Assembly (NCBI GenBank): GCA_016214895.1
Contig: JACRMR010000012.1
Location: forward strand, 297,142 to 361,141
DNA from: Candidatus Zhuqueibacterota bacterium
Lineage (GTDB): Bacteria > Electryoneota > RPQS01
Direction of reading: 5' to 3'
Length of the DNA stretch: 64,000 nucleotides
In this document: in pieces, positions 5,766-55,546 of the stretch
How the letters are laid out: every line of letters begins with the position of its first letter
Position numbering within the stretch: position 1 is the stretch's first letter
The notes under the pieces: generated by a model
Told to the model about the DNA's origin: nothing
Database searches by the model: none
What the model saw: only the letters and a program-made list of their open reading frames with translations
Made by a program: the position numbers and the translations under genes

Positions 5766-5904
5766 CGGGCTGTTACCTCTCCGACGTTGATGAATTGATT
5801 TTCTCGAAACTGGGGATCACAGTCCGCGGCGTTTCCCCCGCCCGCGGCACTGCGCCGCCCGCGCATCACCACTGCTTCGCCCGCGGCGAAGCGAGTCCGT
5901 TCAC

Positions 5905-6453: not shown

Positions 6454-6471
6454 ATCTGGAATCGGTCCTCG

Positions 6472-7026: not shown

Positions 7027-7037
7027 GGGGGGCGCGG

Positions 7038-7664
7038 TTAGAAGTTGATTCCGGTCTTGGTGTCGCGATTGACCGCCGCCTTCTTCTTGGCGTCGGGATC
7101 CGCGGTCAGGCACTCAATCGAGAAGATCAAGGCATCCTGATCTTCGACGACCTTGCGCAGTGATTGATCGAAGCGAATTTCGTGGAGGCCGTGGCGAAAC
7201 TCGGGCGTCCCCTTGAGCAGCTCGATGAACTTCGATATGACTTCGAACTCCTTGATGTTGGAGTCAACCTGCGCGACCGCCTGAATCCTGAACACCTTGT
7301 TTTGGTAGTCCAAGCCGGTAACGGCCATGCCCGCCGGCAAGATCTCGGCCAGCTTCTCCAGCCGCCGAGCCCAGAGGAAGCGATCATTCTCCAGCTTGGC
7401 GAGTGAGGACACATCGTCTTTGGAAACCTTGGTGCCCTCACGCTTCAAGCTGTCAAGTTCGAATCGAATGCGCTCCAACTTCTGCTGCCGCGACTGCACG
7501 ACGTCGCGCATCGCCGCCGTCTGCGCCCAGGTCATCCCGCCGAGCACAACGAACACCAGGGTGAGCAAGCCCAACACCAGATAGGAACGCCGTTCCTGCT
7601 TGCGCTGCTTGAGGATGACCTCACCCTCACCCTTGTTCAGGTTAATAGTAAACTGTTTGACCAT
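7038..7664 (-). CDS. pilN: Type IV pilus assembly protein PilN
   Basis: 208 aa with a short cytoplasmic N-terminus, one TM (LVLGLLTLVFVVLGG) and a coiled-coil periplasmic domain. It lies immediately downstream of pilM. Confidence 0.7.
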   Translation of the reverse strand: MVKQFTINLNKGEGEVILKQRKQERRSYLVLGLLTLVFVVLGGMTWAQTAAMRDVVQSRQQKLERIRFELDSLKREGTKVSKDDVSSLAKLENDRFLWARRLEKLAEILPAGMAVTGLDYQNKVFRIQAVAQVDSNIKEFEVISKFIELLKGTPEFRHGLHEIRFDQSLRKVVEDQDALIFSIECLTADPDAKKKAAVNRDTKTGINF

Positions 7665-7684
7665 GGATCTCGCGGGTTACGGCT

Positions 7685-8761: not shown

Positions 8762-9103
8762 ACGTGCTCCTTACACACCGGGAAATTCAGGATCGTATTC
8801 CGCCGAATCGCGAACGTCAACAGCCGGACGCGGCAGGATCGCTCCAAGAGGTGAGACTGTATTGAGAGAGGATGAAGCAGGGGGGTCGCGCGGCGCGACA
8901 ACGCGCGCCGCGCGACGCTCGGTTCCGGGAAGATAACGTGAAGATCGGACACAGGAATGAACAAGGATAGAATCCGGAAATCATCTAAGACCGGAATCCG
9001 CCATGCCACTCCTGAAGCATGGCCTCCGCCGTCTGTTCGTTACACTTGGCTTCGAGCCCCGCCCGACTCGCCGCACTCGCACCACCTGAAGCCGCTGCCC
9101 CGG

Positions 9104-10648: not shown

Positions 10649-10865
10649 CGGCCCAAAACAAGCAACTTAGAGTGACAGGCTCCGGTACAGTCGGCGACGA
10701 CTCCGAAGTCCTCGGTCGTCCTCTCACATGTTAAGAAGACAAACGATGTCTGCGGTCGCTGGTCTGCGAAGCGGTCCCACTCTGCTGTTTCGGACGTCGC
10801 CGGGCTGCCGGAGATCCCTCGGCCCGCTGATATCCCAACGCCAGTTTCTATGAAAGAACAGGGTC

Positions 10866-10898
10866 GGTGCCGCGGCAGTTGAGGCTCGCCGCGGCACC
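10866..10898 (-). terminator. Candidate intrinsic terminator after the pilin-like gene
   Basis: An 11-bp perfect inverted repeat, ggtgccgcggc/gccgcggcacc, is followed on the minus strand by the U-rich ugUUcUUUc. Confidence 0.4.
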
Positions 10899-10911
10899 GC
10901 CGAATGATGCT

Positions 10912-11682
10912 CTAAGGATTACGGCCAAGGACCTCGTCGGCCTGCGGATTCACGCTCGTGTCCCAGTTGCGCATGAAAACGCTTGTCTGGTATGTCCGTT
11001 CCCGAACGTACTCCTGCTCGAACAGCCCGAACAAGCCGTCCCCCCGCCCCGGCGGGCGATACCGGTACTGCAAAGTCATGGAGATGTCCACGGAGCCAAG
11101 CTTGCGCAGGTTCAGATCGTGACTGGGCCGCACGTAATCCATGGTGAAGCCTTCAACCGTAATCCGATCATAACGCCCCATGGTCGCAATTTCGTCGTGG
11201 CGGGGTCGCTGCCCCGTGAATACGAACTGCTCGCTTCGCCCCGATCCATACCATAGCGGCTCACGACCGCCCAGCAGAATGCCTCGACTGGCACGATAGG
11301 TGATCGTCATCAAGCTGTCTTGCAGACGACCGCCGTAACGCCAATTCCTCGCGAAGTCAGTGCCGGGCGAGCCGCGATCGTAGAAACGCACCTTCCAAAT
11401 CGGATTACGCGAGCCGCCCTGAATCTGAACCGCATCCCAGCCCCACCCCATAAGGTTGGTCAGCTCCAGAAACGTTGACTGCGCATATTGATCCATCTGG
11501 CGGTCCGCATTGGCGACCTTGATCTGCATCGTAAAACTGCGATACGCCACCCAGCCACCCAGCAATACCACGCCGGCCATGATCGTCGTAATCGCCGTGG
11601 AGACGAACGTGAACCCGGCATCCCGCCGCCGCCGGCTGCGCACCGCCGGCATCCCTGAGTCTTGTGTTTGTGTTGTTGTCAT
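10912..11682 (-). CDS. Hypothetical pilin-like membrane protein (non-canonical prepilin N-terminus)
   Basis: Start taken at MTTTQTQDSG. The N-terminus RRRRDAGFTFVSTAITTIMAGVVLLGG resembles a prepilin G|FTL(I/V)E site but has Ser at +5. It sits between pilT and the PilX-like gene. Confidence 0.35.
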   Translation of the reverse strand: MTTTQTQDSGMPAVRSRRRRDAGFTFVSTAITTIMAGVVLLGGWVAYRSFTMQIKVANADRQMDQYAQSTFLELTNLMGWGWDAVQIQGGSRNPIWKVRFYDRGSPGTDFARNWRYGGRLQDSLMTITYRASRGILLGGREPLWYGSGRSEQFVFTGQRPRHDEIATMGRYDRITVEGFTMDYVRPSHDLNLRKLGSVDISMTLQYRYRPPGRGDGLFGLFEQEYVRERTYQTSVFMRNWDTSVNPQADEVLGRNP

Positions 11683-11693
11683 GTTGGCCCCCT

Positions 11694-12179
11694 TCATGAC
11701 CGGATCACAATGTATGTAACGAATGTCAGCTCGCGCGCCTGGAACCGGTCGTCCTCGCCACCCGGCATGTCGTGCTCGCTCCAGCGGGCGTGGCATTTCA
11801 ACGTGTACCAGTCAATGTCCTGGCCTGTCTCGAGAACGTCCACAGCCCGAACCGGCTCCCGAATCAAGTCCACCACCAACGGCGGTGTGTTTCCGCCGGC
11901 GACCGCCGTCGTCAGGACCGAAGTCCGCTCGTTGACCGTGCGGCCCATGTTGGTCGCGCTGCGCTCATCTTCTTCCATCTGGATCCGCGACTGCCACTCA
12001 TCCACGAATCCGCGCAACAGGTACGCGACGGCCTTCTCATTCTCCTGGCGAATGAGCACGTCGCGACCGTAGATCATCGCGGACGACGTGCCCGCCACGA
12101 TGATGGACAAGATGACCAACCCCACCGCGACGCTGACGATGTCGGCCTCTCCGCGCTGCCATTTCAGCTTCATCTTCAT
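11694..12179 (-). CDS. Hypothetical small membrane protein in pilus locus (possible minor pilin)
   Basis: Internal start MKMKLKWQRGEADIVSVAVGLVILSIIVAG gives a short leader plus hydrophobic helix. The 5' extension in the track ORF overlaps pilT. There is no canonical GFTxxE motif. Confidence 0.3.
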   Translation of the reverse strand: MKMKLKWQRGEADIVSVAVGLVILSIIVAGTSSAMIYGRDVLIRQENEKAVAYLLRGFVDEWQSRIQMEEDERSATNMGRTVNERTSVLTTAVAGGNTPPLVVDLIREPVRAVDVLETGQDIDWYTLKCHARWSEHDMPGGEDDRFQARELTFVTYIVIRS

Positions 12180-12288
12180 CGATTTCCTCCCCACTGTTGG
12201 TGATTCGCCCGGTCGACACGGACGAGTCGAAGGACTGTCTGTTTGCGCCTTGCCGCCCCGCGGTGCGGGACGCCAAAGTACCTGCAGA

Positions 12289-13362
12289 TTACTCTTGAAG
12301 ATTGACTTCGAACAGCTTCGGATTCTCCGCCACATGCGCCGCCGTCTCGCGGGTAATCAGCCCCTTATGCATCAACCGGGTCAAATCCTGATCCAGACTC
12401 TGCATACCGGACTTGCCGCCGGCCTGGATGACCGACGGAATCTGATAAATCTTGTCCTCACGAATCAGGTTGCGAACCGCCGTCGTCGCCACCATGATTT
12501 CCGCCGCCACGACTCGACCCTCACCGCCCTTCTTGGGCAGCAGCTTCTGGGCCACGACGGCCTCCAGCGACTCCGCCAGCATCGAGCGAACCTGTGTCTT
12601 CTGGGCCGCCGGGAAAATGTCAATCACGCGGTCGATCGTCTTCGCCGCGCTCGACGTATGCAAGGTCGCAAACACCAAGTGACCCGTTTCCGCCGCCGTC
12701 AACGCCAGCGAAATGGTCTCCAGATCGCGCATTTCTCCGACCAGAATGACATCGGGGTCTTCACGCAACGCCGCACGCAACGCGTTGGCGAACGAGTGCG
12801 TGTTCGCCCCGAGTTCGCGCTGGTTGATCATGCAGTTCTTGGAATCGTGGAAGAACTCGACCGGGTCTTCAATCGTAATGATGTGAAGCTCTTTGTACTC
12901 GTTGATCCAGTCGATCATCGTCGCCAGCGTCGTCGTCTTGCCCGAACCCGTCGGACCCGTCAGCAAGACCAAGCCCCGGTCGCGATCGGCGAGGTCGCGC
13001 ATGACCTCGGGCAGCCCCAACTCCTCAAAGGTGCGGATATCGGTCGGAATCGTCCGAAACACGGCACCCAAACCATTGATCTGCTGAAAAACGTTGACAC
13101 GAAACCGAGCGATACTCTCCAACTTCGCCGAGAAGTCGATTTCCTTCATCTCCTCGAACCGCTCGAGCTGATCGCGCGTCAGGACCGTGCGAACAATCGA
13201 GAGCATCGTCTCATTGTCCAACCGCGGCAGATTCAACTTGCGCATGCGACCGTGAACACGGATCATCGGAATCGACCCGCCGGAGAGGTGCAAGTCCGAC
13301 GCACCCTGATCTACCGCGAAGCGAAGCAGGTCGTATATGTCTAAGCGTCTTGCTGTTGCAAC
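12289..13362 (-). CDS. pilT: Twitching motility retraction ATPase PilT
   Basis: Walker A GPTGSGKTT, the Asp box, the His box and a PilT-specific C-terminus (AHVAENPKLF). Start is proposed at the GTG (Val59 of the track ORF) preceding RRLDIYDLLRFAVDQGASDLHL, the conserved PilT N-terminus. The track ORF to 13536 is probably over-extended. Confidence 0.9.
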   Translation of the reverse strand, partial: VATARRLDIYDLLRFAVDQGASDLHLSGGSIPMIRVHGRMRKLNLPRLDNETMLSIVRTVLTRDQLERFEEMKEIDFSAKLESIARFRVNVFQQINGLGAVFRTIPTDIRTFEELGLPEVMRDLADRDRGLVLLTGPTGSGKTTTLATMIDWINEYKELHIITIEDPVEFFHDSKNCMINQRELGANTHSFANALRAALREDPDVILVGEMRDLETISLALTAAETGHLVFATLHTSSAAKTIDRVIDIFPAAQKTQVRSMLAESLEAVVAQKLLPKKGGEGRVVAAEIMVATTAVRNLIREDKIYQIPSVIQAGGKSGMQSLDQDLTRLMHKGLITRETAAHVAENPKLFEVNLQE

Positions 13363-13530
13363 TTCGGCCACGATGCCTTCTTTCTGCTGTCCTGCCGCCG
13401 GCGGACCGCCGACGACAACCGCGCTATCCGTTCCCGGGTCCACAGTGCGACCCGCTATTCTTCCCGATTCCTGTCTGACGTCCGACCCCCGATCATCTCC
13501 CGCTGTCGATTTCGCTTCCAGCAAGAGGGC

Positions 13531-13569
13531 GGTCACCGGGGCGGGAAGCGCACGAACGCCCCGGCGACC
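13531..13569 (-). terminator. GC-rich stem-loop between pilA and pilT (possible attenuator giving pilA>pilT expression)
   Basis: ggtcaccggggcg...cgccccggcgacc forms a 13-bp inverted repeat. The U-tract is weak. Confidence 0.3.
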
Positions 13570-13592
13570 ACATCATCTTCTCCGGCCAAAAC

Positions 13593-14015
13593 CTACTGGT
13601 TCTCTTCCGGCAGACCGTAGCCGAGCCACGTGCCGTCCTGGACATTGTAAATCACCTGATGTCCCGACCCACCGCGCATCTGCTCGGTGGACGTCGCCGT
13701 GATCGTCACCGGCGGGGCCCCGACCAACGCAAACGTCCACTGCAAAGCCGTGGACTGCGCAATTTCAAGGTACTTCTCCTGCTGCAACTCCTCGATCGTG
13801 GACGGCCAGTCGCCTTTGTCCTGATAGAAGACCTGGGCAGCCTGCCAGACCGCATTGATGGTCGTCTTGGCATCCGATGCGCGCGCGCTTCTCACGTACT
13901 CAACGTAGATCGGAACCGAAATCGCAGCGAGAATCGCTACGATCACGACCACGATGAGGATTTCGATAAGGGTGAATCCCTTATCACTCCGCCGACGATG
14001 AAATCTGCTCAGCAT
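13593..14015 (-). CDS. pilA: Type IVa major pilin PilA
   Basis: Canonical prepilin N-terminus MLSRFHRRRSDKG|FTLIEILIVVVIVAILAAISVPIY. A strong RBS (AAGGAG) lies 6 nt upstream of the ATG at 14013-14015. The protein is ~140 aa. Confidence 0.85.
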   Translation of the reverse strand: MLSRFHRRRSDKGFTLIEILIVVVIVAILAAISVPIYVEYVRSARASDAKTTINAVWQAAQVFYQDKGDWPSTIEELQQEKYLEIAQSTALQWTFALVGAPPVTITATSTEQMRGGSGHQVIYNVQDGTWLGYGLPEENQ

Positions 14016-14547
14016 GCTCACTCCTTTTGAGTTTTCCTCCCCGCACAAGGTACGGTACCCCCCACGGGAACGTGGTTTACTGTATTATTAGTGGACGAGA
14101 AGGTACTACCGTAACTCAACTTTATCAAGTCCAAAACCCGCCTCGATTTGCACACTCCACAGTACGGCCACGACCCTGACATTGTTCAGAATCCTCCACG
14201 ATCGCATTTCAAGGGCACCTAATCCCATGAAAAACATGAGCTGACAAATTTCCGTCAACTGCAAAATCTGCAAGACCTGCATTGTTTGCGTACCTGACGA
14301 GAGGCCAAGTCTGCAAAAAGAAAAAGCCACACCCAAGAGGGCGCGGCCAATGCTGTACACCTGGTCACCGAACCGACCGCGCATTCGGCTGCCTCCCAAC
14401 GGAGTCCAGCCTCCTGCAACCCAGTTCCAGTAGCCGCGTCCGGCTTATGCCCTTTCGGAACCGGATCGCGCACGATGCGCCGGAATCGGATCACCCCCAC
14501 AGGTAACCCTGAACCGATTCACCGAGATCCCGCCCCGAGCGAGCACC

Positions 14548-32015: not shown

Positions 32016-32235
32016 CGGCCGTGCGGCAGGTCTGACCGTGTCATGAGGTATGTCATAGCAATTAGTGCCTCTATCAACCAGCGAAGTCCCCGAGGCAAAT
32101 CCGTGAGCAGGTCGGACTCCCGATCAAATTCGTTTTCTCTAACTCGTATAAATACAATTATTAATGATTTCTTGAAATCGATGACGGGAACCCGAAACAT
32201 ATGTGCGCAGTGATTGGCATAGGGGTTGCATGTCA

Positions 32236-32340: not shown

Positions 32341-33831
32341 ATGACCCAACTCCGGCAAGAATTTCGTCAGCACCAGCGACTTGAGCAGTACCTCCAACCG
32401 CAACAGATCCTCCGCAGCGAGCTGATCCAATTGCCCTTGCTCGAGCTCGAACTTCGAGTCCGGCAAGAGCTGGTGGAAAACCCGTTTCTCGAAGAGATCG
32501 CCGAGGACGAGGCCATTGTGGACAAGCAGCAAGTCGAGCTGGAATCGGATACCGCGGCGGCAACCTACGAGACTGACCACTCGGAAAATGGGACGACCGA
32601 AAAAGCGGCCGAGATAGAATCCGCGCAGGAGGCGACCAAGGAGTCGGACGTTGACTGGGAGAACTTCCTCAGCGATGACGCCGATCAAGGTCTATTCCGG
32701 GCCGGAAAGCACATGCCCGATGACATGGTGGAGACCCCGCAGGCTTTCGTGCCCACGCTGTCCGAACACCTTGAGGAGCAGTTGCGATTACAGCGGCTTA
32801 CCCCGGATGAATTAAAGGTCGGGCAGTACATCATCGGCTCGATCAACAACGACGGCTATCTGAAATACCCGGTCGAAGAAATCGCGCGCGAACTCAATGT
32901 GCCGGTGCCGCTGGCGGAGAAGGTGCTGGCCTTGGTCCAGCAACTCGACCCGCCCGGAATCGGGGCGCGACACCCGCAGGAATGCCTGTTGATTCAACTT
33001 CGCCAGTGGGACCATCAGGACAAAGCGCGATTGCCAATTCAAATCCTGACCGAGGCCTACGATGACTTGCTCAATAAGCGCTACGAAGTGATCGCCAAAA
33101 AGATGAATGTTGCGCTCGACCAGGTTAAGCAGGCCTTCGCCGAGATCCGCAAACTCAACCCCAAGCCGGGCGAAGGCTATTTCGATGAGAAACAGAACTA
33201 CGTTGTCCCGGACCTGGTCGTGACTCGCGCCGGCGGAGATGACGACGAATTCATCGTCTTCCTGAACGACGGAAATATCCCCAGCTTCCACATCAACACG
33301 GCCTACAAGGAGATGTTCCTGTCGGGAAATACCGACAAGAAAGTCAAGGAGTTCGTCACCCGCAAACTCGAGAGCGCCCGCTGGTTCATTAACGCGATTC
33401 ATCAACGGCAAACCACGATTCTGCGCACCATGCGCGCCATTGTCAAGCGGCAAGAGGGCTTCTTCCGCCACGGCAAGGAACATCTCAAACCGATGATCCT
33501 GCAGGATATTGCCGAGGAAATCGGGATGGACATTTCCACGATCTCTCGCGTGACGTCCGGAAAGTACGTGCAGACCGAGTGGGGCGTCTTCGAGCTGAAG
33601 TACTTCTTCTCCGAACGCATGGAAACCACCGACGGCGAGGAGATTTCCACGAAAGTCATTAAGGCCCGCCTGCTCGACATCATCGAACAGGAAGGCAAAT
33701 CAGATCCGCTCTCCGACCAGACCATCGCCGAGATGCTGGCCAAGGAGGGCTACCCCATCGCGCGCCGCACCGTCCAGAAATACCGCGAGCAATTGGCCAT
33801 CCCGGTCAAGCGCTTGCGGCGAGAGATCTGA
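32341..33831 (+). CDS. rpoN: RNA polymerase sigma-54 factor
   Basis: Gln/Leu-rich region I (LRQEFRQHQRLEQYLQPQQILRSELIQLPLLELE), the core-binding region, the C-terminal HTH and the RpoN box ARRTVQKYRE. Confidence 0.9.
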   Translation: MTQLRQEFRQHQRLEQYLQPQQILRSELIQLPLLELELRVRQELVENPFLEEIAEDEAIVDKQQVELESDTAAATYETDHSENGTTEKAAEIESAQEATKESDVDWENFLSDDADQGLFRAGKHMPDDMVETPQAFVPTLSEHLEEQLRLQRLTPDELKVGQYIIGSINNDGYLKYPVEEIARELNVPVPLAEKVLALVQQLDPPGIGARHPQECLLIQLRQWDHQDKARLPIQILTEAYDDLLNKRYEVIAKKMNVALDQVKQAFAEIRKLNPKPGEGYFDEKQNYVVPDLVVTRAGGDDDEFIVFLNDGNIPSFHINTAYKEMFLSGNTDKKVKEFVTRKLESARWFINAIHQRQTTILRTMRAIVKRQEGFFRHGKEHLKPMILQDIAEEIGMDISTISRVTSGKYVQTEWGVFELKYFFSERMETTDGEEISTKVIKARLLDIIEQEGKSDPLSDQTIAEMLAKEGYPIARRTVQKYREQLAIPVKRLRREI

Positions 33832-44581: not shown

Positions 44582-44808
44582 CCTGCGGCCCTCCCAAGCC
44601 CCTCGGATCATCATCCCTTCAAGAACGGCGACGAAATACGGCTCCGAATTGCAGGTTGCAACCCAGTTCGCGATTAGCCAATTCGGGGGCGATTGGGGCT
44701 GTCGCCGGGAACCCACAAGCTATCTAAATTACCGATTTCTGTGCATTTTGTCAAGCCAAACCGACCCCGATTTGGACGGGCACCGGATTTGCAAACTCGC
44801 CTCTGCAA

Positions 44809-47226
44809 GTGAACCATATGACCCAAGAGGTGCAAATGCGATCCATCTGGAAGCCCGTCTTCGTCACCGTCGGTGCACTGGCCATTCTGGCCGGTACGCT
44901 ACTCTTGATGGGCAATATCCAAAATGTCACGCGCATCGCGAACTCGACCGAGTTTTCCAAGCTCCAGACCACCGCGCTGTCGTGGTCGGCCGGCCTGGAA
45001 ACCTGCCGATCCGCGGTTCGGGAGCAGGTGCTCCGGCAAGAGCTGCTGCGAATCTCCGAACGGCCCGGCGAATGGGTGACATGGCGAGCCGCCGAGAAAT
45101 ACCGTGCATTTCTCACCGACTGGAACGCCTCCTACGGCCCCCCGCGGGCGCTCTGCCTGATCGTAAATGCGGCGCAGCTCCATAGTTTTGAAGGCGACAC
45201 GAGCGGATTGGCAATGTCGTTGAAGTTGTTCGAGGAATCGGGCAATCCGGAGATCACGATCTTCGGTGGCAACGCAAGTACTCCCGGTTTTGTCGCGATC
45301 CAATATCGTTACCAGCAGGATAGCGCCGCGATCGCCTCGCGCTGGATCACTCTGTTCGACCCCACGACTGTGCTGCGAGTCGGAGACACGGCCCCGCATG
45401 CCTGGACACTCATGTCCGGCCCCGATCAAACCCTGTTCTCCTCGTCCGGCGGGTCGCAGGCCGCCTGCGTCAGTCCGGCAACCTGGCCACTCATTATCGG
45501 TCAGCAGAAAGGGGCCCTGCCGGGGACGAACGACGATCAATGGGGATTCGTCAAACTGCAACTCCCCGGGATGAAGCCCGTATTGCTCCTCGCATCCCTG
45601 ACTCCGCCCGGCACGGCGTCACACGCGTCGATCTGGTGGATCGCGGCGGGTCTGCTGGTGATGATCGTCGTCGCGGTCTGGCCGTACGCCCCCAATCCCC
45701 TGACCGCGGAATTGGCTCCGCCGCTCCCCGAACCGGGAGAGCCGGCGATCCCAAGCTCGGATGCCACTGCCTTCCGGCAACTCTTCCAGGCCATCGTGGA
45801 TCCGTTGTGCATCGTGGAAGTCGATGGCCGATTCTCGCGCTCGAATCATGCCGCGCAGGAAATGCTCAGAATTCAGCGGGGAAAGCCGGATCCGGCGCTC
45901 AACATGGAACACGGAGACCTGGCGATTCCCGCCGCGGCTTTCTTCCAACAGCTCGCCGCAGGGGCCATTGACGCCGACGGTCCGGTGCGGCTTGCCACCA
46001 CCGAAAAGGTCGTCTTTTCCGGTCGCATTCGTGCGACCCGGCTCTACGTCGATCAAGATCGGCATGGCCCGCTGCTCTTGCAATTCGTGCATGATGTCGA
46101 AACCGCACCGACACTCGCCATTGAGTCCGTGGCGGACGAGGATGCCGTTCCGGTCGCCGATCCATTGTGTCCGAATGCGATCATCGTGGTGTCGCGCGAT
46201 GGCTTGTTACAGAATTACAACGACGCCGCCCTGGCCATCTGTCCGACCCTTGAAAACTCGCCGATGCTCACGGACATCTTCCCCGCGCTGGACCGCATCG
46301 AAGTCGAGCGGATACTAAGGCGCGAAAACACCTCGCGGTTCGAAACCCTGTTCGGGAGCGGCACGTTCGAGTTTCACGCCTGCCCGCACAATGGCACCGT
46401 CGTCCTCTACGGCAGTCCCGCCGCCGCCGAAAAACAGCTCGAAATCGCGCTCGCACAGGCGCACGAAAACTTCAACACGCTGTGCAACATGACGCCCGCC
46501 GCCGTGCTCTTCCTCAATGTGCACGATCACAACATACAGCAGTGCAACGTGGCCGCCTGCGACCTGTTCAGCATGCCGGCGCCGGGACTGCTCGGGCGCA
46601 CACTCGAATCCCTCTCCGCATTTCCGTGGATCCCGTCCTCCGAGCCGGAAAGCGAGTTCTTCGCCGCGACTCCCGACGGCCGCACCATCCGCTGCAAGTT
46701 CGCCTGCGAACTGGTCAAGATCGAAGGCGAACCAACGATGCTGGCCGTGCTCGATCCGATCGCCACCTACCAGCCCGTCTCGGAACAGGAACAGGAAACC
46801 CGTGAACTGCTCGCGGCAGTGGATCGGCTCGCCCAAGACGAAGACACGCCGCCGAATACCGCCGGCCCGGGGCTGCTCATCGTTTCCAACCCCGTCGTGC
46901 GCGATGTCGCCCGCAAACTGCTCGAACGCGCCGGCCATGACGTCGAGGCTTTCACCACGCTCGATGATGCCACGGTCTGGGTGATCGCGCATCAGTACGT
47001 GCCGGGCCTGATCACGCTGGACGTGACCGACTTCGACGATGTCGAGGATTGGCTCGCGAACCTCCGCGCCCGCTGCGGCAGCGTCCCCTGCCTGGCGATC
47101 ACTGACGGCGAGACGCATGAGTTGCCCAACTCCGGCGAGAACTTCTTCCTGCAAAAGCCGTTTGATCTCGATGATGTGGAGCGCGCGCTTCACGAATTAG
47201 GAGTCGAAGCCACGGCGCACGCCTGA
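44809..47226 (+). CDS. Membrane sensor protein: periplasmic domain, three PAS-like domains and a C-terminal degenerate receiver (REC) domain; no kinase domain
   Basis: There are two TM segments (residues ~15-35 and ~280-300). Three PAS-like cores are present (FRQLFQAIVDPLCIVEVDGRF; IIVVSRDGLLQNY; MTPAAVLFLNVHDHNIQQCNVAA...). The C-terminal ~120 aa have REC topology (LLIVSNP...LITLDV...KPFDLDDV) but with SN in place of the acidic DD pair. Confidence 0.55.
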   Translation: MNHMTQEVQMRSIWKPVFVTVGALAILAGTLLLMGNIQNVTRIANSTEFSKLQTTALSWSAGLETCRSAVREQVLRQELLRISERPGEWVTWRAAEKYRAFLTDWNASYGPPRALCLIVNAAQLHSFEGDTSGLAMSLKLFEESGNPEITIFGGNASTPGFVAIQYRYQQDSAAIASRWITLFDPTTVLRVGDTAPHAWTLMSGPDQTLFSSSGGSQAACVSPATWPLIIGQQKGALPGTNDDQWGFVKLQLPGMKPVLLLASLTPPGTASHASIWWIAAGLLVMIVVAVWPYAPNPLTAELAPPLPEPGEPAIPSSDATAFRQLFQAIVDPLCIVEVDGRFSRSNHAAQEMLRIQRGKPDPALNMEHGDLAIPAAAFFQQLAAGAIDADGPVRLATTEKVVFSGRIRATRLYVDQDRHGPLLLQFVHDVETAPTLAIESVADEDAVPVADPLCPNAIIVVSRDGLLQNYNDAALAICPTLENSPMLTDIFPALDRIEVERILRRENTSRFETLFGSGTFEFHACPHNGTVVLYGSPAAAEKQLEIALAQAHENFNTLCNMTPAAVLFLNVHDHNIQQCNVAACDLFSMPAPGLLGRTLESLSAFPWIPSSEPESEFFAATPDGRTIRCKFACELVKIEGEPTMLAVLDPIATYQPVSEQEQETRELLAAVDRLAQDEDTPPNTAGPGLLIVSNPVVRDVARKLLERAGHDVEAFTTLDDATVWVIAHQYVPGLITLDVTDFDDVEDWLANLRARCGSVPCLAITDGETHELPNSGENFFLQKPFDLDDVERALHELGVEATAHA

Positions 47227-47649: not shown

Positions 47650-50600
47650 ATGTTTTCGCTTGGCTCCCGATGTTCTTCCTTGCTCGCACTGCTGGCTACC
47701 CTGTTAGTCGCCGGCCTGGGCCTTGCCCAGAATCCCGGTGATGTGCTGATTTCGGAATCGATGTACGATGATACGGCCTCAACAGATGTCGAATGGGCGG
47801 AAATCTACAACACTACGGCTAACCCCATCGACATCTCCGGCTGGACGCTGCAGGACGCCCCTGCTTATCCCCCGGCGACCGAAGGTTCAATCCTGGTCCC
47901 GGCCGGCACCACTATCGCTGCCGGACAATACCTGGTCCTGTGCAAGGCCGCAATTCCCGAGTTCACGGGCGAAATCGTCTGCACGCAGAATTTCGGTTCA
48001 TGGGCACTCGGTAATTCCGGTGACAACCTCGCCCTCTATACGGGGAGCGGCACGCTCATTGATGGATCGTTGAGCGTCATTATCCCGGACTCATCGCTGA
48101 CGGGCGGAAACTCAACGGAGCGTTGCTCCTTCGCCATCAGCTACGATGTCGGGTCAAACTGGCATCAGTCCACCAATGTGTTCGCCACGACCGGCCGCTA
48201 CCGCCTCTGCACGCCCGGCGCACCGAATTCCGCCTGCGGGGCCAGCGATACCACGCCACCGACGCTCCTGAGCGCCGCGGCCACGACTGCTACCACCGTC
48301 GATCTGCTCTGGAATGAGTCGGTCGGGCTGGTGTCAGCGCAGACCGTGGCCAACTACGTCGTCAACAATGGCGTCGGCAATCCGCTGACCGCGACCCGCG
48401 ACGGAGCGAATCTCGCGCTGGTGCATCTGACGTTCAACGCGATGGCCAACAACACCTACTCGATCACCTGCAATAACGTTGCTGACGTGGCCGGAAATGT
48501 CTCCACGAATCAGATCGCTAATTTCACGGTGAATGTTACCGTCGCGCAGGGCGCTGTTGTGATCACGGAAGTGATGTACGATGATACGGCCAGCGGGACC
48601 AACCCCGATGTCGAATGGGTGGAGATTCATAACACCACCGCGTCGGCCATCGATTTATCGCTGTGGCGTCTGACCGACTACAGCGCCGTCCCGCCCACCG
48701 CGGAAGGCAATGTCGTGATTCCGGCCGGGACTTCGATTCCGGCGGATGGCTATCTCGTGCTTTCCAAAGTCGCGATGCCGGAAATCCCGAGCGCGATTGT
48801 CTGCGTTGACTCCGGATCACTCGGGCTGGGCAATTCCGGCGATAACCTCGCACTTTATACCGCGGACTTCGCGCAACTCGTGGATGGCTCGCTGACGGTC
48901 AACTACCCTGACCTCGCCCTGAACAACGGCGGTCACTCGATTGAGAAGTGCGATGTGAACGCGCCGTGGTCCGGCCTCGCCGCCGATTGGCATGAATCCA
49001 CCAATGTCTTCGGAACCGGACGATATCAGCTCTGCACGCCGGGCGCCGTCAATTCTCCCTGCCTCGGCGACACCACACGGCCCACGCTCGTGTCCGCGAC
49101 CGCGCTCAGCACGACGCTGATCGAAGTCGTCTTCAACGAAGCCCTGAACGAAGTCTCGGCGGAAACCGTGACAAACTACTCCGTGGACCTCGGCGTGGGC
49201 TCGCCCAGCACGGCAACGCTGCAGACCACCCCCACAACGGTCCGCCTGCTCTACGGCACCGCGTTGGCTCCCAATACGTACACCTTGACCGTCAATAACG
49301 TAGCGGACGTTGCGCTGAATGCGATCCTGCCCAACTCGCAAGTGTCGTTCACCGTCTCCGCTCCGCCGGAGAACCTCAAGTTCACCGAGTTCATGCCGAA
49401 TCCGGCGTTCGCGAGCACAGGCGACAGCCTCGGCGAATGGTTCGAGATCTATAATGCCGGGGCGACCACCGTGGATCTGACCGGGTGGATCATCGCCGAT
49501 AATTCCGGCAGCGATACCATTGAAGCCGGCACGATCAACCCCGGCCAGTATTTTGTGTTCTGCTCAAACGGCGACAGCGCAACGAACGGCGGTGTGCCGG
49601 AGAATTTCGACTATCGTTTCGCCACGTCCGGTTGGGGCCTGAGCCTGAGCAATACCGGCGAAACCATCTTCTTGCGCAACCCGGCGGGGACCAATGTCGC
49701 CACGGTCACATACACGACCGCATTCCATTGGGGCGCCGGCGTGAGCGCCCAATTGATCGATTTGAATTACAGCGGCGCCGTTGACACCATGTGGTGCGCC
49801 GGTTATCAGGCCTGGCCGGGCGCCAACAATGGCGACCTCGGCACGCCCGGAACCGCTACGGCATGTGCTCCGGTGCTCCCGCCGGATACGCTCACACTCT
49901 GCCAGGTCCGCGAGCAAGACACCTGCGGCGTCGCCACGCGGCTGAATACCCGCGTCGTCACGCATGGCGTCGTTACTTGGGTCGATTCGTGCGGCACAGA
50001 GGCGTTCGTCGAGAGCGGCGGCTGCGCGGTCCAGATCTTCGGCACCGCGGTTACGACCAATATGGTCGGGAATCCCCGTCCCCCCATGGTCGGCGACACC
50101 ATTGAAGTGTGGAGTTACATCACACAGTTCCGCGGCGTCACAGAATTCTCTACCTATACCGCCGTCGCGCCGGTGATCACCTATCTTGGTTCGGCTGCGG
50201 TCCCGGCACCGGTAGTGGTCGCGGCCTCGGCAGTCGCAACCGTCGTCGATGACTGCGGACCCGAACTGTACGAATCCCGTATTATTTCCGTGCTCGGCGC
50301 GACCTTCCTGAATGCAGGCGGTACGTTCGCACCCGGTGACACAACGTTCCCGGCCGTGGTCGGAACGGACACGGTCCTCTACTACGTCGATAGTTGCGAT
50401 GTGTCTATCCTCGGAACGACGATTCCTGCCGGCGCTGTGAACTTGCGAGGTGCGCTCGGACAACATGATCTGACGACGCCGTGCCTGTGCGGCGGCTATC
50501 AGATCGTCTTCGCCGGAGGCAGCGCTTTCGAAGCCGCGCAGTGCCCGGATCCTACGCAATTCACCGTCAATCGTGACGACAGCCTGGCCACGACGGTTAC

Positions 50601-50796
50601 CTTGCGCTGGACCCCCGGCCTCGGTGCAGCATGCAATACGTACAAGGTCTATGCATCCACGAACGGCAGCGCTGTTTTCCCCGCCACATACACCCTCGTC
50701 GCGACGGTCGTTGCACCAACGCCGCCGGATTGCTTCTATACCGATCCGAGCGCACTGGCGCCGATTCGCTTCTATCATGTGACGGCTGACAACTAA
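47650..50796 (+). CDS. Large secreted protein with three lamin-tail domains (LTD), Ig-like (SbsA/Big_5-type) domains and a C-terminal FN3-like region
   Basis: It begins with a signal peptide. Three LTD-like units are present (VLISESMYDDTASTDVEWAEIYNTTANPIDISGWTLQD...LGNSGDNLALY; VVITEVMYDDTASGTNPDVEWVEIHNTTASAIDLSLWRLTD...LGNSGDNLALY; LKFTEFMPNPAFASTGDSLGEWFEIYNAGATTVDLTGWIIAD), each followed by a segment of the type TTPPTLLSA..TT.VDLLWNE. The length is 1048 aa. Confidence 0.75.
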   Translation: MFSLGSRCSSLLALLATLLVAGLGLAQNPGDVLISESMYDDTASTDVEWAEIYNTTANPIDISGWTLQDAPAYPPATEGSILVPAGTTIAAGQYLVLCKAAIPEFTGEIVCTQNFGSWALGNSGDNLALYTGSGTLIDGSLSVIIPDSSLTGGNSTERCSFAISYDVGSNWHQSTNVFATTGRYRLCTPGAPNSACGASDTTPPTLLSAAATTATTVDLLWNESVGLVSAQTVANYVVNNGVGNPLTATRDGANLALVHLTFNAMANNTYSITCNNVADVAGNVSTNQIANFTVNVTVAQGAVVITEVMYDDTASGTNPDVEWVEIHNTTASAIDLSLWRLTDYSAVPPTAEGNVVIPAGTSIPADGYLVLSKVAMPEIPSAIVCVDSGSLGLGNSGDNLALYTADFAQLVDGSLTVNYPDLALNNGGHSIEKCDVNAPWSGLAADWHESTNVFGTGRYQLCTPGAVNSPCLGDTTRPTLVSATALSTTLIEVVFNEALNEVSAETVTNYSVDLGVGSPSTATLQTTPTTVRLLYGTALAPNTYTLTVNNVADVALNAILPNSQVSFTVSAPPENLKFTEFMPNPAFASTGDSLGEWFEIYNAGATTVDLTGWIIADNSGSDTIEAGTINPGQYFVFCSNGDSATNGGVPENFDYRFATSGWGLSLSNTGETIFLRNPAGTNVATVTYTTAFHWGAGVSAQLIDLNYSGAVDTMWCAGYQAWPGANNGDLGTPGTATACAPVLPPDTLTLCQVREQDTCGVATRLNTRVVTHGVVTWVDSCGTEAFVESGGCAVQIFGTAVTTNMVGNPRPPMVGDTIEVWSYITQFRGVTEFSTYTAVAPVITYLGSAAVPAPVVVAASAVATVVDDCGPELYESRIISVLGATFLNAGGTFAPGDTTFPAVVGTDTVLYYVDSCDVSILGTTIPAGAVNLRGALGQHDLTTPCLCGGYQIVFAGGSAFEAAQCPDPTQFTVNRDDSLATTVTLRWTPGLGAACNTYKVYASTNGSAVFPATYTLVATVVAPTPPDCFYTDPSALAPIRFYHVTADN
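47741..49700 (+). repeat. Intragenic tandem coding repeats (LTD units, ~0.8-kb period, partially conserved at the nucleotide level)
   Basis: Compare 47755-47870 with 48568-48690 (gatgtacgatgatacggcc...gatgtcgaatggg.ggagat...aacac.ac.gc). Confidence 0.55.
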
Positions 50797-50811
50797 ACCG
50801 GCCTGCCCGGC

Positions 50812-50866
50812 ATTCATTCGAAGCGCGGCCCGGGCATTGCCCGGGCCGCACTGGTTCCGGGGCAAA
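50812..50866 (+). terminator. Two tandem GC-rich hairpins downstream of LTD gene (terminator-like, no U-tract)
   Basis: The first is gcggcccgggcattgcccgggccgc (11-bp stem). The second is ccggggca-aaatc-tgccccgg. Confidence 0.35.
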
Positions 50867-51004
50867 ATCTGCCCCGGGCAGGCGCTATGCAGCAGCAGTT
50901 ACCGGACTTACGCGTGGCGCGAGGTTTGCTTCAAGTAGCTATGACATAATCCCGGACCAGCTCGTCCACCGCCGAAATAGGATAACCCCGCCCGAGGAAC
51001 TACC

Positions 51005-51442
51005 ATGGCCGACAATCTGATCGAGAATTTCCTCCTCAATCAGGCCCCCGGCAACGCCGTCCTTAAGAAGACGCTGGATGCGAACGCCCTGCGGCAACGC
51101 ACACACGCGCAGAATATCGCCAATGCTGAGACGCCCGGGTACCGGCGGCTGGCCGTGGACTTCGAACAGCAGCTCAAGCAGGTGCTGGACGACGACATCG
51201 ACGGCATGGCACAGACCAATCCGCGCCACATGAACGGAAACGGCGCGCGCGTCGAGCTTGAGGCCCTTGCCGCAACGACGCGCACGGAACCGCTCGATCC
51301 GAACAGCCCGGGCATCAACGGCGTAAATATCGATCTCGAAATGGCCGAGATGGCCGAAACCCAGCTCCGCTATCTCACGTCGCTGGAACTTCTGAAACGC
51401 CGATATGCCGGCATCAAGGCCGCGATCAAAGGCCAACCGTAA
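51005..51442 (+). CDS. flgB: Flagellar basal-body rod protein FlgB homolog (orphan)
   Basis: Rod-protein N-terminal signature AQNIANAETPGYRR (consensus NIANANTPGY), a length of 145 aa, and a heptad-rich C-terminus. No flgC/fliE is adjacent. Confidence 0.7.
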   Translation: MADNLIENFLLNQAPGNAVLKKTLDANALRQRTHAQNIANAETPGYRRLAVDFEQQLKQVLDDDIDGMAQTNPRHMNGNGARVELEALAATTRTEPLDPNSPGINGVNIDLEMAEMAETQLRYLTSLELLKRRYAGIKAAIKGQP

Positions 51443-51461
51443 TCGCAAGGCAGATCAAGAC

Positions 51462-51496
51462 AAACGGGACAGCAGCGCTGTCCCGTTTGCATTTTC
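51462..51496. terminator. Bidirectional intrinsic terminator between flgB and convergent tyrA
   Basis: aaacgggacagc-agc-gctgtcccgttt followed by gcattttcg. Confidence 0.6.
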
Positions 51497-51514: not shown

Positions 51515-52705
51515 CTAAGGTCTAAGCCGCGCCGCGAAACCGTCTTCTTTCAAGATCTCAACGGCGCGCCGCGCATCGAGACGCGATTCCACCGTGACGT
51601 GCAGCGATCCGCCACGACCCTCGCGAACGAATAATACTCCAATGTCGCGAATGTTGATACGATGCGTAGCCAGCAGACTGGCAATCCTGGCTATGGCACC
51701 CGGACGGTCCGAAACCGTCACCGAGATCTCGCAATTCGCGTCCCAGTCGCCCGGCCGCTCCCGTAACAGCTTGCGCTGGAACTCGGCCGCGCTCATCCAC
51801 AGATCGTGCACGCGACCCGCCGCGATCGCCGCCTCAAATTCCTCCAGCGTCCGGCGAAGCTCCGCCAAACCCGCCAGCAGCGCGGATTGATTGGAACGGA
51901 GCGCCCCCTCCCACATTTCCGGCGGCAGCGCGGCCAAGGCCGTCGAGGACTGAAACGACCCCGTGGCGAGCTTCGACAACAGCGGCTCCGTTGACGATCG
52001 CATCGCCAGCCAATGCGACATTGCCAGCGCGACCATCAGCGGCACGTGCGTAGTCAGCGCGACAATCTGATCGTGACGATCCGGTTCCAGCGGCAGCGGG
52101 TACGCGCCCAGCATGCGAATCCACCAAAACAGCGTCTCGCGCGATTCCGCCGGAAGGTCAGGACGCGATGTCACCAACCAGTAAGCGTTCTCGAACAAGT
52201 TCGCATCGGCATTCGCGATCCCGGTGCGGTCCTTCCCCGCCAGCGGGTGTCCGCCAATATAGTGCGCGGACGACGGCGTCAGCTCGGCAACGCGCAGTAA
52301 TTCGGATTTCGTCGGACAGGTGTCCGTCACAATCGCCCCGGCCTTCGCTCGGGTCAATATGTCCGGCAGCAACCGTGCCGATGTTTCCACGGGTACGCAC
52401 AGGACAATCAGATCCGCATTGCCGATCGCCTCGGAAAGCTCGACCACTCCCCGATCGATGGCACCGCGGGCGAGCGCTTCATCCAAAACCTCCTGTCGAT
52501 CGCAGCCGATCACACTCCCGCCGTGCTCCATCGCCTTCATGCGCAATCCGATCGAGCCCCCGATCAACCCGACCCCAACGATCACAATCCGATCAAACTC
52601 GCGGCTAATTAGCGCCAGCGGATCGGGCAGAGTTAGCCCGTCTAACTCCACATGTTCCACTGCTTCGGGTTCGCCGATTCCGCTTTTCATCTCGTGATCG
52701 GTCAA
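51515..52705 (-). CDS. tyrA: Prephenate dehydrogenase (TyrA) with C-terminal ACT domain
   Basis: Rossmann GxGxxG (IVIVGVGLIGGSIG), the catalytic motif YIGGHPLAGKD, and a C-terminal ACT domain (ISVTVSDRPGAIARIASLLATHRINIRDIGV). Confidence 0.85.
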   Translation of the reverse strand: MTDHEMKSGIGEPEAVEHVELDGLTLPDPLALISREFDRIVIVGVGLIGGSIGLRMKAMEHGGSVIGCDRQEVLDEALARGAIDRGVVELSEAIGNADLIVLCVPVETSARLLPDILTRAKAGAIVTDTCPTKSELLRVAELTPSSAHYIGGHPLAGKDRTGIANADANLFENAYWLVTSRPDLPAESRETLFWWIRMLGAYPLPLEPDRHDQIVALTTHVPLMVALAMSHWLAMRSSTEPLLSKLATGSFQSSTALAALPPEMWEGALRSNQSALLAGLAELRRTLEEFEAAIAAGRVHDLWMSAAEFQRKLLRERPGDWDANCEISVTVSDRPGAIARIASLLATHRINIRDIGVLFVREGRGGSLHVTVESRLDARRAVEILKEDGFAARLRP

Positions 52706-52735
52706 CGCTCGCGATCCTCAGTCTGCGCCCACACC

Positions 52736-53827
52736 TTACCGAATTTCCGTGATCTTAAGCCCGGCGTTGCCGAGCGCCGTCGCCGCTCGCGATCTGTCCG
52801 CCGGTGAATTCAAGGTCAAACAGAACGTCCCCGCCGCCGCATCGTGCATCTTGTCCAGACTGGCGACGGTGATTCTGCACTCCGCCAAAATCTGCGCCGC
52901 CTTTTCCAACACCTTTGTGTCTCCGCCAGCCGCCAGCACGATCTCCCGTGACGCCTCCTGCGCCACTTCCGGATTGACCAGTTTGCCGCTGGCCCCCGCC
53001 AACTGCTCCAAGTGCTGCTCGAGACTCCCCGTGGCGACAGCTTCACGCAACGTTGCCAACTGCTTCAACAGTTGATCCAGCGCCTGCAAAACCGGTTCGC
53101 GATTATCCGCCACATCATGCGCCCATCCGGAAAACTGCATCTGTTGCAGCTCGCCCATCTGCTCCGCCAGCCACGCCCCCATGCTCGCGGAACTGACCGG
53201 CATGCCTCGCGCCGGATCCAACACATATTCGACCGCGGCCATCATGGCCAACCGCGGCGCCTGATTGATGTCCGCCAGCATTCGGTCGTGCGCTTGCGGA
53301 CTCATCGCCACCACGTTCGCTCCCAGCCGCTTCATCGCCTCCTGCAACTGCGAAAACGCATCCAGATCCGGCTTCCCGCGCGGCGTCAGGATGACGGTCT
53401 TATGCTCAAAGTAATACTGACTCGATTTCTCCAACTCGATCTGCACGTCCGCATCCCCGGCCAACCGAAAACCGACGTAGCTGACGTCTGTACGTTTCGA
53501 TTCGGCGAAGACCCGGTTCACGTCACCCTTGACCCGAGTCATCTCCGAGATGATCGTCCCCGGCTCGACGCAGGCCAAAACATCGCACAGTGAAATGCCC
53601 AGGGTCGCGGCTTCCCGTGACAAGATGACCAGACCCGCGCCCTTTACGGCCCGGGCAAGCTCCGGGGTTCCGTCGGTCACCACGCGAAGTTTCCAGGCCT
53701 GCTGGACTGTCGCATTGTCGGCCACCCCGACGATGCCGCCCTGGTACCCGGTCCGCTTCATGCCCAAGGCGAAACTGCCGACCATGCCGTCCAGGCCTAT
53801 GAAGCACATGCGATTACATAGTGCCAT
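52736..53827 (-). CDS. TyrA-fold/ACT paralog with degenerate NAD-binding and catalytic motifs (putative pseudo-dehydrogenase)
   Basis: It is collinear with TyrA, but GxGxxG becomes IGLDGMVGS and the HPLAG motif becomes YVGFRLAGD (no His). It retains an ACT-like C-terminus. Confidence 0.55.
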   Translation of the reverse strand: MALCNRMCFIGLDGMVGSFALGMKRTGYQGGIVGVADNATVQQAWKLRVVTDGTPELARAVKGAGLVILSREAATLGISLCDVLACVEPGTIISEMTRVKGDVNRVFAESKRTDVSYVGFRLAGDADVQIELEKSSQYYFEHKTVILTPRGKPDLDAFSQLQEAMKRLGANVVAMSPQAHDRMLADINQAPRLAMMAAVEYVLDPARGMPVSSASMGAWLAEQMGELQQMQFSGWAHDVADNREPVLQALDQLLKQLATLREAVATGSLEQHLEQLAGASGKLVNPEVAQEASREIVLAAGGDTKVLEKAAQILAECRITVASLDKMHDAAAGTFCLTLNSPADRSRAATALGNAGLKITEIR

Positions 53828-54043
53828 ACCTGCCTACTCCACGGTTGTTCTCAAGCCGAAATTATCCGACCCAAGATGCGCAATTCCCGCGCCACCCATC
53901 CCACCGTATCGTAAATATAACAAATCATAAGGAGGAGCGCAAGGGAATCGACCCCATCAGACTCACTGATCCTCGCCAGACCCAAAAGACAAGGCGGACA
54001 ACTGCCCGCCTTACCGTCAAACTGCCCGCACTATCCCCCCGCC

Positions 54044-55546
54044 TCAGCCGACCGGTACGTCCGCACCCCGCAGGAGTTCCTTGGCCCGGATGACCTGTTC
54101 CCGCTTGGTCAGGGTAACCCAAAGCGTCAGCCCACTTGGCGTTTCCTCGCGATCAATCCGCTCAATTTCGATCCGATTCTGCGTCAGGAGCTGAGCCGCC
54201 GTCTGCAACGTGTGGACGTCGTGCCCGCAGGAAATTGAAAACGTCGGCGAAAGATCCTGCTCAGCCTCGACGCTCGCCGGGGCGAGATCCGAACTGCCGG
54301 TTCCCACCGCCGAATCGCCGAAACCAGCGCTCAGCGAGCCATAGTCGTCTGAAACCCAGCCGTGGTGCGCGTCGGGTCGTTGTTCCGCGGAGGTCTCCGG
54401 CGCCGAAACGGACGGTGCTGAATCCTGAGATTCGTGTGCAGCGGCCAACGTCGAGATCTCACCGCGCCCGGTGCGTTCCGGCTCCACGGCCTGCGCCCGC
54501 AGGATATCCTCGACGGTGCGCCGCGTGTTTTCAATCAGCTCATACAACGATTGGACACTGACCCCTTGGCGAACCGGCATCCGCTTGACGACCTTGATCG
54601 CGCTCTCGAGCATCTCAACCAACGCTTCCGGCGAAGCCTCCATCGCGGCCGGTGGCAGCGCTGCCAGTCGCGCTCCCGCCGGGTTGGTCAAACTCTTCAG
54701 TTCATTTGCCTGACGGTGAGTGCTCGAGGCAATCTCGTGCATCTTGTCCTGCGTCAGCTCACCGATCAGAGCCGCCAGCTGCTGTTGGCAGCCCTCGAGT
54801 GCCGCCAAGACGTTGGACTTGTTGTGAAACAAGTTGGACGACCAAATCTCCGAAGCCGACCGTCCCATCGCCGCGAAGTCGCCAAAGAGCTGGTAGCTCT
54901 CGGCCACCGTGTCGGTGCCCGTCGCATCCAGCTTGTTCGTGAGGTAGCGCATGAAAGGAATCCGCACCAATTGCGGAAGCTGCACGAATTCCGCCATCTG
55001 CCGGTCATGAAGCTGCGGACTCGTCGCGATCACCGTGGCGCCGCAGTGCCGAAACATGTCCGATAACAGGCTAAAGACATTTAGGTCCTCAATCGTGAGC
55101 GGCGATAGCGACACCCGTTGGCCGTTGAAGAAATCGGCCGAGGCCCCGTCGAGCGCTTCGCCCCAATCCAACGAGCCGCCCAGGGCTACGCTCACATAGT
55201 GGAAATCCGTCCGGTCGAGTTCTCTAACTACCCGCGACACTTCTGTCATGGTTCGCCCATGGCCGCAGATCACCGCACGCGGATCACACGAAATGATGAC
55301 CTCCCGTAAATTCCACGGAGAGCCGTTCTCCCCCGTTCCCAGCAACAGAATGTCGGAACCGTGGATTCCCTCCAGAAAGCTATCTACGCAGGAGTCCGCG
55401 ACGCCGCTGCTCACCCACTGCTGGCCGACCTCCGCGCCCGCCACACAGATGACCTCGACCCCCGGTGAATATTGCCGGATGGCCAGGGCGAGGGTTCCCG
55501 CCCAGTGATCGGGTCCAATTACGCAAACTCGCGTAAACCTTAGCAT
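54044..55546 (-). CDS. TyrA-fold/ACT paralog with degenerate motifs and a long low-complexity linker (putative pseudo-dehydrogenase)
   Basis: The N-terminus VCVIGPDHWAGTLALAI (GxDxxxG), with YVSVALGGS replacing HPLAG. ADFFNGQRVSLSPLT aligns to ANLFENAYWLVT of TyrA. An acidic/Ser-rich linker precedes a C-terminal ACT-like domain. Confidence 0.5.
   Translation of the reverse strand: MLRFTRVCVIGPDHWAGTLALAIRQYSPGVEVICVAGAEVGQQWVSSGVADSCVDSFLEGIHGSDILLLGTGENGSPWNLREVIISCDPRAVICGHGRTMTEVSRVVRELDRTDFHYVSVALGGSLDWGEALDGASADFFNGQRVSLSPLTIEDLNVFSLLSDMFRHCGATVIATSPQLHDRQMAEFVQLPQLVRIPFMRYLTNKLDATGTDTVAESYQLFGDFAAMGRSASEIWSSNLFHNKSNVLAALEGCQQQLAALIGELTQDKMHEIASSTHRQANELKSLTNPAGARLAALPPAAMEASPEALVEMLESAIKVVKRMPVRQGVSVQSLYELIENTRRTVEDILRAQAVEPERTGRGEISTLAAAHESQDSAPSVSAPETSAEQRPDAHHGWVSDDYGSLSAGFGDSAVGTGSSDLAPASVEAEQDLSPTFSISCGHDVHTLQTAAQLLTQNRIEIERIDREETPSGLTLWVTLTKREQVIRAKELLRGADVPVG

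Follow-up and report, generated by a model that had tools for sequence, protein, structure and literature searches.

A solitary flgB gene with a sigma-54-type promoter is conserved across a FlgB family and its nearest outgroup

To our knowledge, the order flgB-flgC-fliE at the head of the flagellar rod operon is treated as nearly universal. In the 64-kb stretch of DNA analyzed here (the window), a gene resembling flgB stands by itself, which raises the question of whether it serves a flagellum whose other genes lie elsewhere, has been put to another use, or is a leftover. An earlier note on this DNA had offered these three readings as a dispersed flagellar regulon, a repurposed rod-like protein, and a relic. 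Our analysis discards the relic and finds the dispersed regulon best supported, albeit indirectly, while a repurposed protein is possible and has gained no positive support.

Identity of the FlgB protein and its setting in the window

The flgB gene and the neighboring genes and clusters to which we refer are as follows.
51005..51442, plus strand: flgB CDS, 145 aa, flagellar proximal-rod protein FlgB, ATG start
47650..50796, plus strand: secreted LTD-Big_5-LTD protein, 1048 aa (Pfam LTD 5.7e-53), directly upstream of flgB
44809..47226, plus strand: membrane PAS sensor (Pfam PAS, weak C-terminal Response_reg, two hydrophobic segments)
51515-55546, minus strand: three tandem prephenate-dehydrogenase paralogues
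2633-14048, minus strand: type IV pilus cluster, complete-looking

Residues 36-46 of the flgB reading frame read QNIANAETPGY, and the protein scores 90.7 bits against the NCBIfam equivalog TIGR01396 (FlgB; cut-off 59.05), with profile positions 7-131 of 131 matched. The earlier description of a clear FlgB with a NIANAETPGY signature is thus borne out, and the FlgB HMM threshold, named at the time as a possible refutation, is exceeded. The N-terminal rod motif at residues 23-47 matches Pfam Flg_bb_rod just past its threshold (22.4 bits versus a cut-off of 20.7), and the FlgC model TIGR01395 gives the protein only 21 bits. A PDB profile search with the profile of the family described below returned full-length matches to the FlgB chains of 12du, 7bin, and 8z5s (E ~1e-20). 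The AF2 model of the protein, which is of moderate quality (pLDDT 72), combines long helices at both termini with a small beta element. When this model was compared with the PDB by Foldseek, ranks 1-21 were all proximal-rod FlgB chains, with Salmonella on top and query-normalized TM scores of 0.53-0.58, followed by FlgC. Moreover, a protein of identical sequence (P0001) bears the name FlgB at NCBI, and in a neighbor-joining tree rooted on FlgC, the family and its outgroup are nested within FlgB, apart from FlgC. As far as HMM, profile, predicted fold, and tree can tell, the protein is an ordinary, genuine FlgB. It shares with the canonical FlgB of Salmonella (flgBCDEFGHIJ; 7bin, 7cg0, 8wkq) the TIGR01396 assignment, size, fold, N-terminal rod motif, C-terminal helix, and lack of a signal peptide. 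What differs is the genetic arrangement: the canonical gene heads a flgB-flgC-fliE(-fliF...) operon, whereas flgB in the window is monocistronic with neither flgC nor fliE beside it. Adjacency to flgC and fliE is a usual, non-defining feature of FlgB.

The isolation of the gene, as claimed at the outset, was confirmed throughout the window. Pfam scans of ~40 ORFs, together with precomputed Pfam assignments for the right-hand genes, revealed no second flagellar gene, and when the window was searched by tblastn with 21 flagellar proteins (MotAB, FliLMNOPQR, FlhABFG, FliA, FlgC, FliE, and others), flgB was the sole match. The window also holds an ECF sigma factor, lptB-rpoN, lon, pdxST, and nifU/suf genes, as well as T9SS-type cargo proteins with Por_Secre_tail C-terminal domains. 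The earlier note had stated that the genome encodes type IV pili and a T9SS; the pilus cluster and the T9SS cargo proteins are indeed present, and Pfam detected no T9SS machinery in the window. The pilus cluster comprises a Poly_export/SLBB protein, the PilQ secretin, PilO, PilN, PilM, a T2SSE-family ATPase, and a pilin, in addition to three ORFs without a Pfam match.

The LTD gene upstream of flgB is its own transcription unit, with no sigma-54 site upstream of it. Its product, which has three lamin-tail domains and a Big_5 domain, is ~50% identical across the phylum and shows neither an NCBIfam match nor a recognizable T9SS sorting domain. On the other side of flgB, the three prephenate-dehydrogenase paralogues are unequal: one (396 aa) is complete and has an ACT domain, another (363 aa) has PDH_N only, and a 500-aa copy combines weak PDH domains with a long C-terminal half without a match. 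Their copy number differs among relatives.

Transcription signals of the flgB unit

The signals around flgB, and the sigma factor gene related to them, are listed below.
50797..50880, plus strand: GC-rich hairpins, immediately past the LTD stop codon
50915..50930, plus strand: sigma-54 (-24/-12) type promoter TGGCGCGAGGTTTGCT, 90 nt before the flgB ATG
50994..50998, plus strand: Shine-Dalgarno GAGGA, read from the sequence, 7 nt before the flgB start
51461..51489, no strand assigned: intrinsic terminator hairpin, 13-bp stem, between the convergent flgB and prephenate-dehydrogenase genes
32341..33831, plus strand: rpoN (Pfam Sigma54_DBD 5.7e-59, Sigma54_CBD 6.2e-56, Sigma54_AID)

The element TGGCGCGAGGTTTGCT agrees with TGGCACG-N4-TTGCW at 11 of 12 consensus positions, with GG at -24, GC at -12, and exact spacing. 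Upstream of flgB, an equivalent element that agrees at 9 or more of the 12 positions was found in 33 of 34 distinct regions, both outgroup loci assigned to Fibromonadales among them, and one that agrees at 10 or more in 28, against backgrounds of 0.05 and 0.013 per 200 nt, respectively. The distance from the GG-N10-GC element to the start codon is 27-96 nt across loci and reaches 191 nt in one of them (L024). No sigma-70-like promoter was found upstream of flgB. The sigma-54 factor that this promoter needs is provided for by rpoN in the window, and no Sigma54_activat protein occurs among the window ORFs scanned. A sigma-54-like element, TGGCATAGGGGTTGCA, also lies between lptB and rpoN at 32215-32230 (plus strand), 126 nt before rpoN, and could mediate autoregulation of rpoN.

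Both structured regions reported to bracket the gene are present. RNA folding of 50797-50905, which takes in the upstream GC hairpins, gave -62.9 kcal/mol (z = -4.07), a stability equaled by 0 of 200 shuffles. No T-run follows the hairpins on the plus strand. They are probably the 3' end or a terminator structure of the LTD gene. Downstream, the hairpin at 51461-51489 (z = -6.22) is flanked by A-rich sequence on its 5' side and by T-rich sequence with a T-run on its 3' side. In agreement with the bidirectional terminator proposed earlier, these features suggest that it could act in both directions. Taken together, a sigma-54 promoter, a Shine-Dalgarno sequence, the 145-aa FlgB frame, and a strong terminator make up one unit.

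While the sigma-54 promoter of flgB is well supported, it is not by itself the mark of a flagellar regulon. A promoter of this type, GGCACCGnnTTTGCA, lies at 44778-44793 (plus strand) before the PAS sensor gene, and a sigma-54 element occurs ~60 nt before that gene in 13 of 13 related loci. Likewise, a sigma-54-type promoter at 53879-53894 (minus strand) precedes the prephenate-dehydrogenase paralogue at 52736-53827 and is conserved in 9 of 9 loci, which makes this gene an unexpected regulon member. Because the promoter type is kept before these non-flagellar neighbors too, it is not specific to flagella, and we rejected the argument that it proves a flagellar regulon. These promoters imply instead that sigma-54 is widely used in these organisms.

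A family of solitary flgB genes and its nearest outgroup

Among 5.8 billion proteins searched, ~100 clusters (141-145 aa) are 52-86% identical to the FlgB of the window and form one family; the few members bearing organism names are labeled KSB1 or Calditrichaeota. We compared ~35 distinct family loci of up to 20 kb each, nearly all of which represent the same neighborhood, and flgB was solitary in every one, with neither flgC nor fliE within 10 kb on either side. A JGI metagenome scan yielded 17 loci, none of them attributable to Ace Lake. The same scans also recovered canonical FlgB loci (L013, L035-L042, and L059, including Dehalococcoidia and Acidobacteriaceae), in all of which flgC lies directly downstream, so that the solitary state of the family gene is no artifact of the method. 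The earlier note had treated the gene as a peculiarity of one genome; the solitary flgB is instead a conserved trait of the lineage.

The commonest gene order is T9SS cargo, PAS sensor, LTD protein, flgB, prephenate dehydrogenase, and nifU-suf. In several loci, L004, L020, and L025 among them, an inversion has flipped the LTD gene and flgB together, and the LTD gene is convergent in another (L050). The PAS sensor remains beside flgB despite several rearrangements. One sub-clade has SprT before flgB, followed by a PAS hybrid kinase and an LMW phosphatase, and no LTD gene; we therefore rejected LTD and FlgB as an obligatory functional pair. In two loci, L022 (1272-6005) and L026 (10001-14878), a 1200-1300-aa PAS/GAF hybrid histidine kinase-receiver begins 52-56 nt after flgB and is followed by a low-molecular-weight phosphotyrosine phosphatase; in this sub-clade, kinase and phosphatase may be cotranscribed with flgB.

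The reading frame is intact at 141-145 aa in 32 distinct family sequences, and dN/dS (Nei-Gojobori) is 0.04-0.17 for pairs with unsaturated dS, which indicates strong purifying selection. The family alignment contains 41 invariant columns, and the N terminus, MADNLIxN, is unusually conserved for a FlgB. One sequence from a 1464-bp Logan contig (P0092) is identical to another family member (P0066) over its first 47 residues and differs sharply beyond them, which suggests a chimeric assembly or a recombinant.

The closest FlgB proteins outside the family (~40% identity, 144-145 aa) are encoded at two loci, L014 and L015, where flgB is also solitary. In this outgroup, flgB sits directly after secDF and has a perfect sigma-54 promoter 27 nt before its start; flhA and flhF lie 7-9 kb from flgB in one locus, and an MCP gene lies near it in the other. 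The FlgB of L015 begins with MADNLI. We assigned the outgroup to Fibromonadales (Fibrobacterota) through its neighboring FlhA, whose closest relatives, among the best 120 matches listed, are named Fibromonadales. For Fibromonadaceae, numerous genes for flagella and chemotaxis have been reported. The outgroup thus resembles the family in its solitary flgB, sigma-54 promoter, and protein length, and differs in having secDF rather than LTD or PAS genes as neighbors and flhA and flhF within 9 kb. The solitary sigma-54 flgB unit is conserved across the family and its nearest outgroup lineage.

Flagellar genes in the lineage and the meaning of the solitary gene

Three family MAGs, Aved_18-Q3-R54-62_BATAC.765, Skiv_18-Q3-R9-52_BATAC.286, and Aved MAXAC.418, are classified as p__AABM5-125-24 in SData3 of Singleton et al., while their 16S sequences are placed in Fibrobacterota/Chitinivibrionia by SILVA and MiDAS. 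A further family-bearing MAG, GCA_020637395.1, is named HK-STAS-AABM5-4. Other carriers of the gene are the assemblies JADJCU01 (Aved BATAC.765; 9 contigs, 96% complete), JADKHW01, GCA_023382385.1, and GCA_036504735.1, as well as a 3.36-Mb contig that encodes P0086. AABM5-125-24 of GTDB corresponds to Ca. Electryoneota and carries the label KSB1 or Calditrichaeota at NCBI; the window genome was placed in this lineage through its family membership and shared gene order. Among the Electryoneota MAGs of Ace Lake, a complete flagellar gene set was described in Ca. Electryonea clarkiae, and a set complete but for flagellin in Ca. Hatepunaea (Williams et al. 2022). The accessible part of a KofamKOALA table that accompanies the paper on Ca. 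Tariuqbacter arcticus, an Electryoneota MAG of another class, lists ~35 flagellar KOs with one FlgB (K02387) for a genome that this part does not name. There, flgB opens one contig and fliE another, with no call for flgC, which leaves their arrangement ambiguous. These phylum-level reports of flagella concern classes or genera other than that of the window's organism. Flagellar KOs were absent from two KSB1 clades analyzed by Li et al. (2022), whose genomes differ from those studied here, and the KSB1 papers, which likewise cover other genomes, do not describe a solitary flgB. In the accessible portion of the Singleton KEGG module list, the AABM5 MAGs do not appear under FlrBC, and the FCB-phyla paper contains no flagellar KOs.

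The FlhA protein of the outgroup was used to look for flagellar genes in the family genomes. Each of the best 120 matches listed shared at least 59% identity, those with a name were Fibrobacterota, and none of these 120 lay on the long contigs that carry a family flgB (2.9 Mb, 3.36 Mb, and others). A HMMER search with FlhA against 50% representatives gave top matches in Elusimicrobiota, Spirochaetes, Nitrospinota, and Wallbacteria, none of them assignable to AABM5; the FlhA of AABM5 may have been merged into a Fibrobacterota cluster. The genes at the ends of the window, used to extend it, matched short Logan contigs only and added nothing further. Two candidates were rejected. An ENA contig with 40% GC and a Fibrobacterota-type flagellar cluster proved to be a different contig from that of a family genome, and the FlhA whose amino-acid composition was the most GC-rich (P0202) has no link to the family, since it lies in GCA_001188585.2 (JFJP02) in the Fibrobacterota-type order flhB-NHL-flhA. 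A ~550-aa NHL-repeat protein is encoded immediately before flhA in clusters assigned to Fibrobacterota (L015 3389-5011, L016 8276-9976, and L062 5801-7489), between flhB and flhA in the latter two, and may be a lineage-specific flagellar component.

We consider it probable, at roughly 0.7, that the gene is the genuine proximal-rod flgB of a flagellated lineage, AABM5-125-24, and forms a sigma-54 unit separate from flgC and fliE. A dispersed regulon is favored because the outgroup lineage has the same solitary sigma-54 flgB and because full flagellar sets have been published in the phylum. Under this explanation, flgB would be transcribed alone from its sigma-54 promoter by RpoN with an enhancer-binding activator, and transcription would end at the hairpin at 51461-51489. 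FlgB, which has no Sec signal, would leave the cytoplasm through the flagellar type III apparatus and, like its counterpart in the solved rod of Salmonella, would build the first layer of the rod by polymerizing onto FliE and FliPQR, underneath FlgC. To judge from family membership and relatives, flgC, fliE, and the other flagellar genes should lie elsewhere in the genome. Against this explanation stands the fact that the family-bearing DNA, meaning the 64-kb window and the ~35 loci of up to 20 kb, shows no other flagellar gene. Weighing on the same side are the lack of an FlhA from the long family contigs among the best 120 matches listed, the use of the promoter type before non-flagellar genes, the origin of the published flagellar sets in other classes or genera, and the two KSB1 clades of Li et al. 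in which flagellar KOs were not found.

The absence of other flagellar genes from this DNA, with a flgB that is solitary at every locus examined, would fit a second explanation, in which flagella were lost in the lineage or in this genome's part of it and the rod-family protein was kept under sigma-54 for another job, possibly linked to the neighboring PAS sensor or the secreted LTD protein. The conserved gene order with these two neighbors, the shared promoter type of the PAS sensor, the persistence of the LTD-flgB pair through inversion, the unusually conserved N terminus, and the lack of an FlhA on near-genome-size contigs among the best 120 matches listed are all in line with it. However, the protein matches the FlgB equivalog model over its full length, and without a type III export gate a protein lacking a signal could not leave the cytoplasm. 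Moreover, the outgroup with flhA and flhF nearby has the same solitary gene and promoter, full flagellar sets occur in published Electryoneota MAGs, the LTD link is missing in one sub-clade, and, with sigma-54 promoters common in the region, sharing a promoter type says little about a functional link. We regard a repurposed FlgB as unlikely. A more specific version, in which at least the activated-sludge/bioreactor branch of AABM5-125-24 lost the flagellum and kept the rod subunit in a non-flagellar role, perhaps tied to the PAS or LTD protein, appears quite unlikely. If a repurposed protein were nonetheless the true explanation, the retention of a rod protein in the absence of a flagellum would count among the rare instances in which an axial flagellar protein has acquired a new role.

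Flagellar rod and hook paralogues occur in other bacteria, and this precedent allows that a canonical flgB-flgC-fliE operon exists elsewhere in the genome, with the flgB of the window as a second, specialized copy. Three observations make such an extra paralogue very unlikely: the best 120 profile matches listed hold the family, followed by the outgroup and FlgB proteins of other phyla, with no second FlgB from a family genome; a single K02387 appears in the accessible part of the Tariuqbacter KO table; and the family scores as an equivalog rather than as a divergent copy. Finally, a decaying relic of a lost flagellum, for which only the isolation of flgB from other flagellar genes would speak, can be dismissed as hardly credible, as the selection analysis contradicts decay (dN/dS 0.04-0.17 over intact frames of uniform length in 32 sequences) and conservation extends to the promoter, the ribosome-binding site, and the terminator.

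A genuine rod gene split from its partners can be compared with other known systems. In Helicobacter and Campylobacter flgBC and in the Vibrio class III flgB operon, a -24/-12 promoter precedes flgB, and these organisms carry their flagellar genes at many separate loci. In these genera, flgB is still cotranscribed with flgC. The flgB of the window is therefore like their sigma-54 rod genes in its promoter and unlike them in standing alone. Leftover flagellar genes also occur in non-flagellate bacteria, as exemplified by FliI, FlhA, and FliF of Chlamydiae, which are likewise isolated flagellar homologues with no obvious flagellum nearby. However, the chlamydial leftovers are parts of the export apparatus, whereas the gene in the window encodes an axial rod subunit, and flagella have been reported in its lineage.

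The unusual feature of this locus is not the protein itself, but the lineage-wide separation of flgB from flgC and fliE as its own sigma-54 unit. That both the split and the promoter are shared speaks for a close link of Electryoneota with Fibrobacterota. If the gene is the genuine rod gene of a flagellated lineage, the head of the rod operon would be split across AABM5-125-24/Electryoneota and at least part of Fibrobacterota, and annotation by operon or synteny, as well as calls of flagellum presence or absence on fragmented MAGs, could misjudge such genomes.
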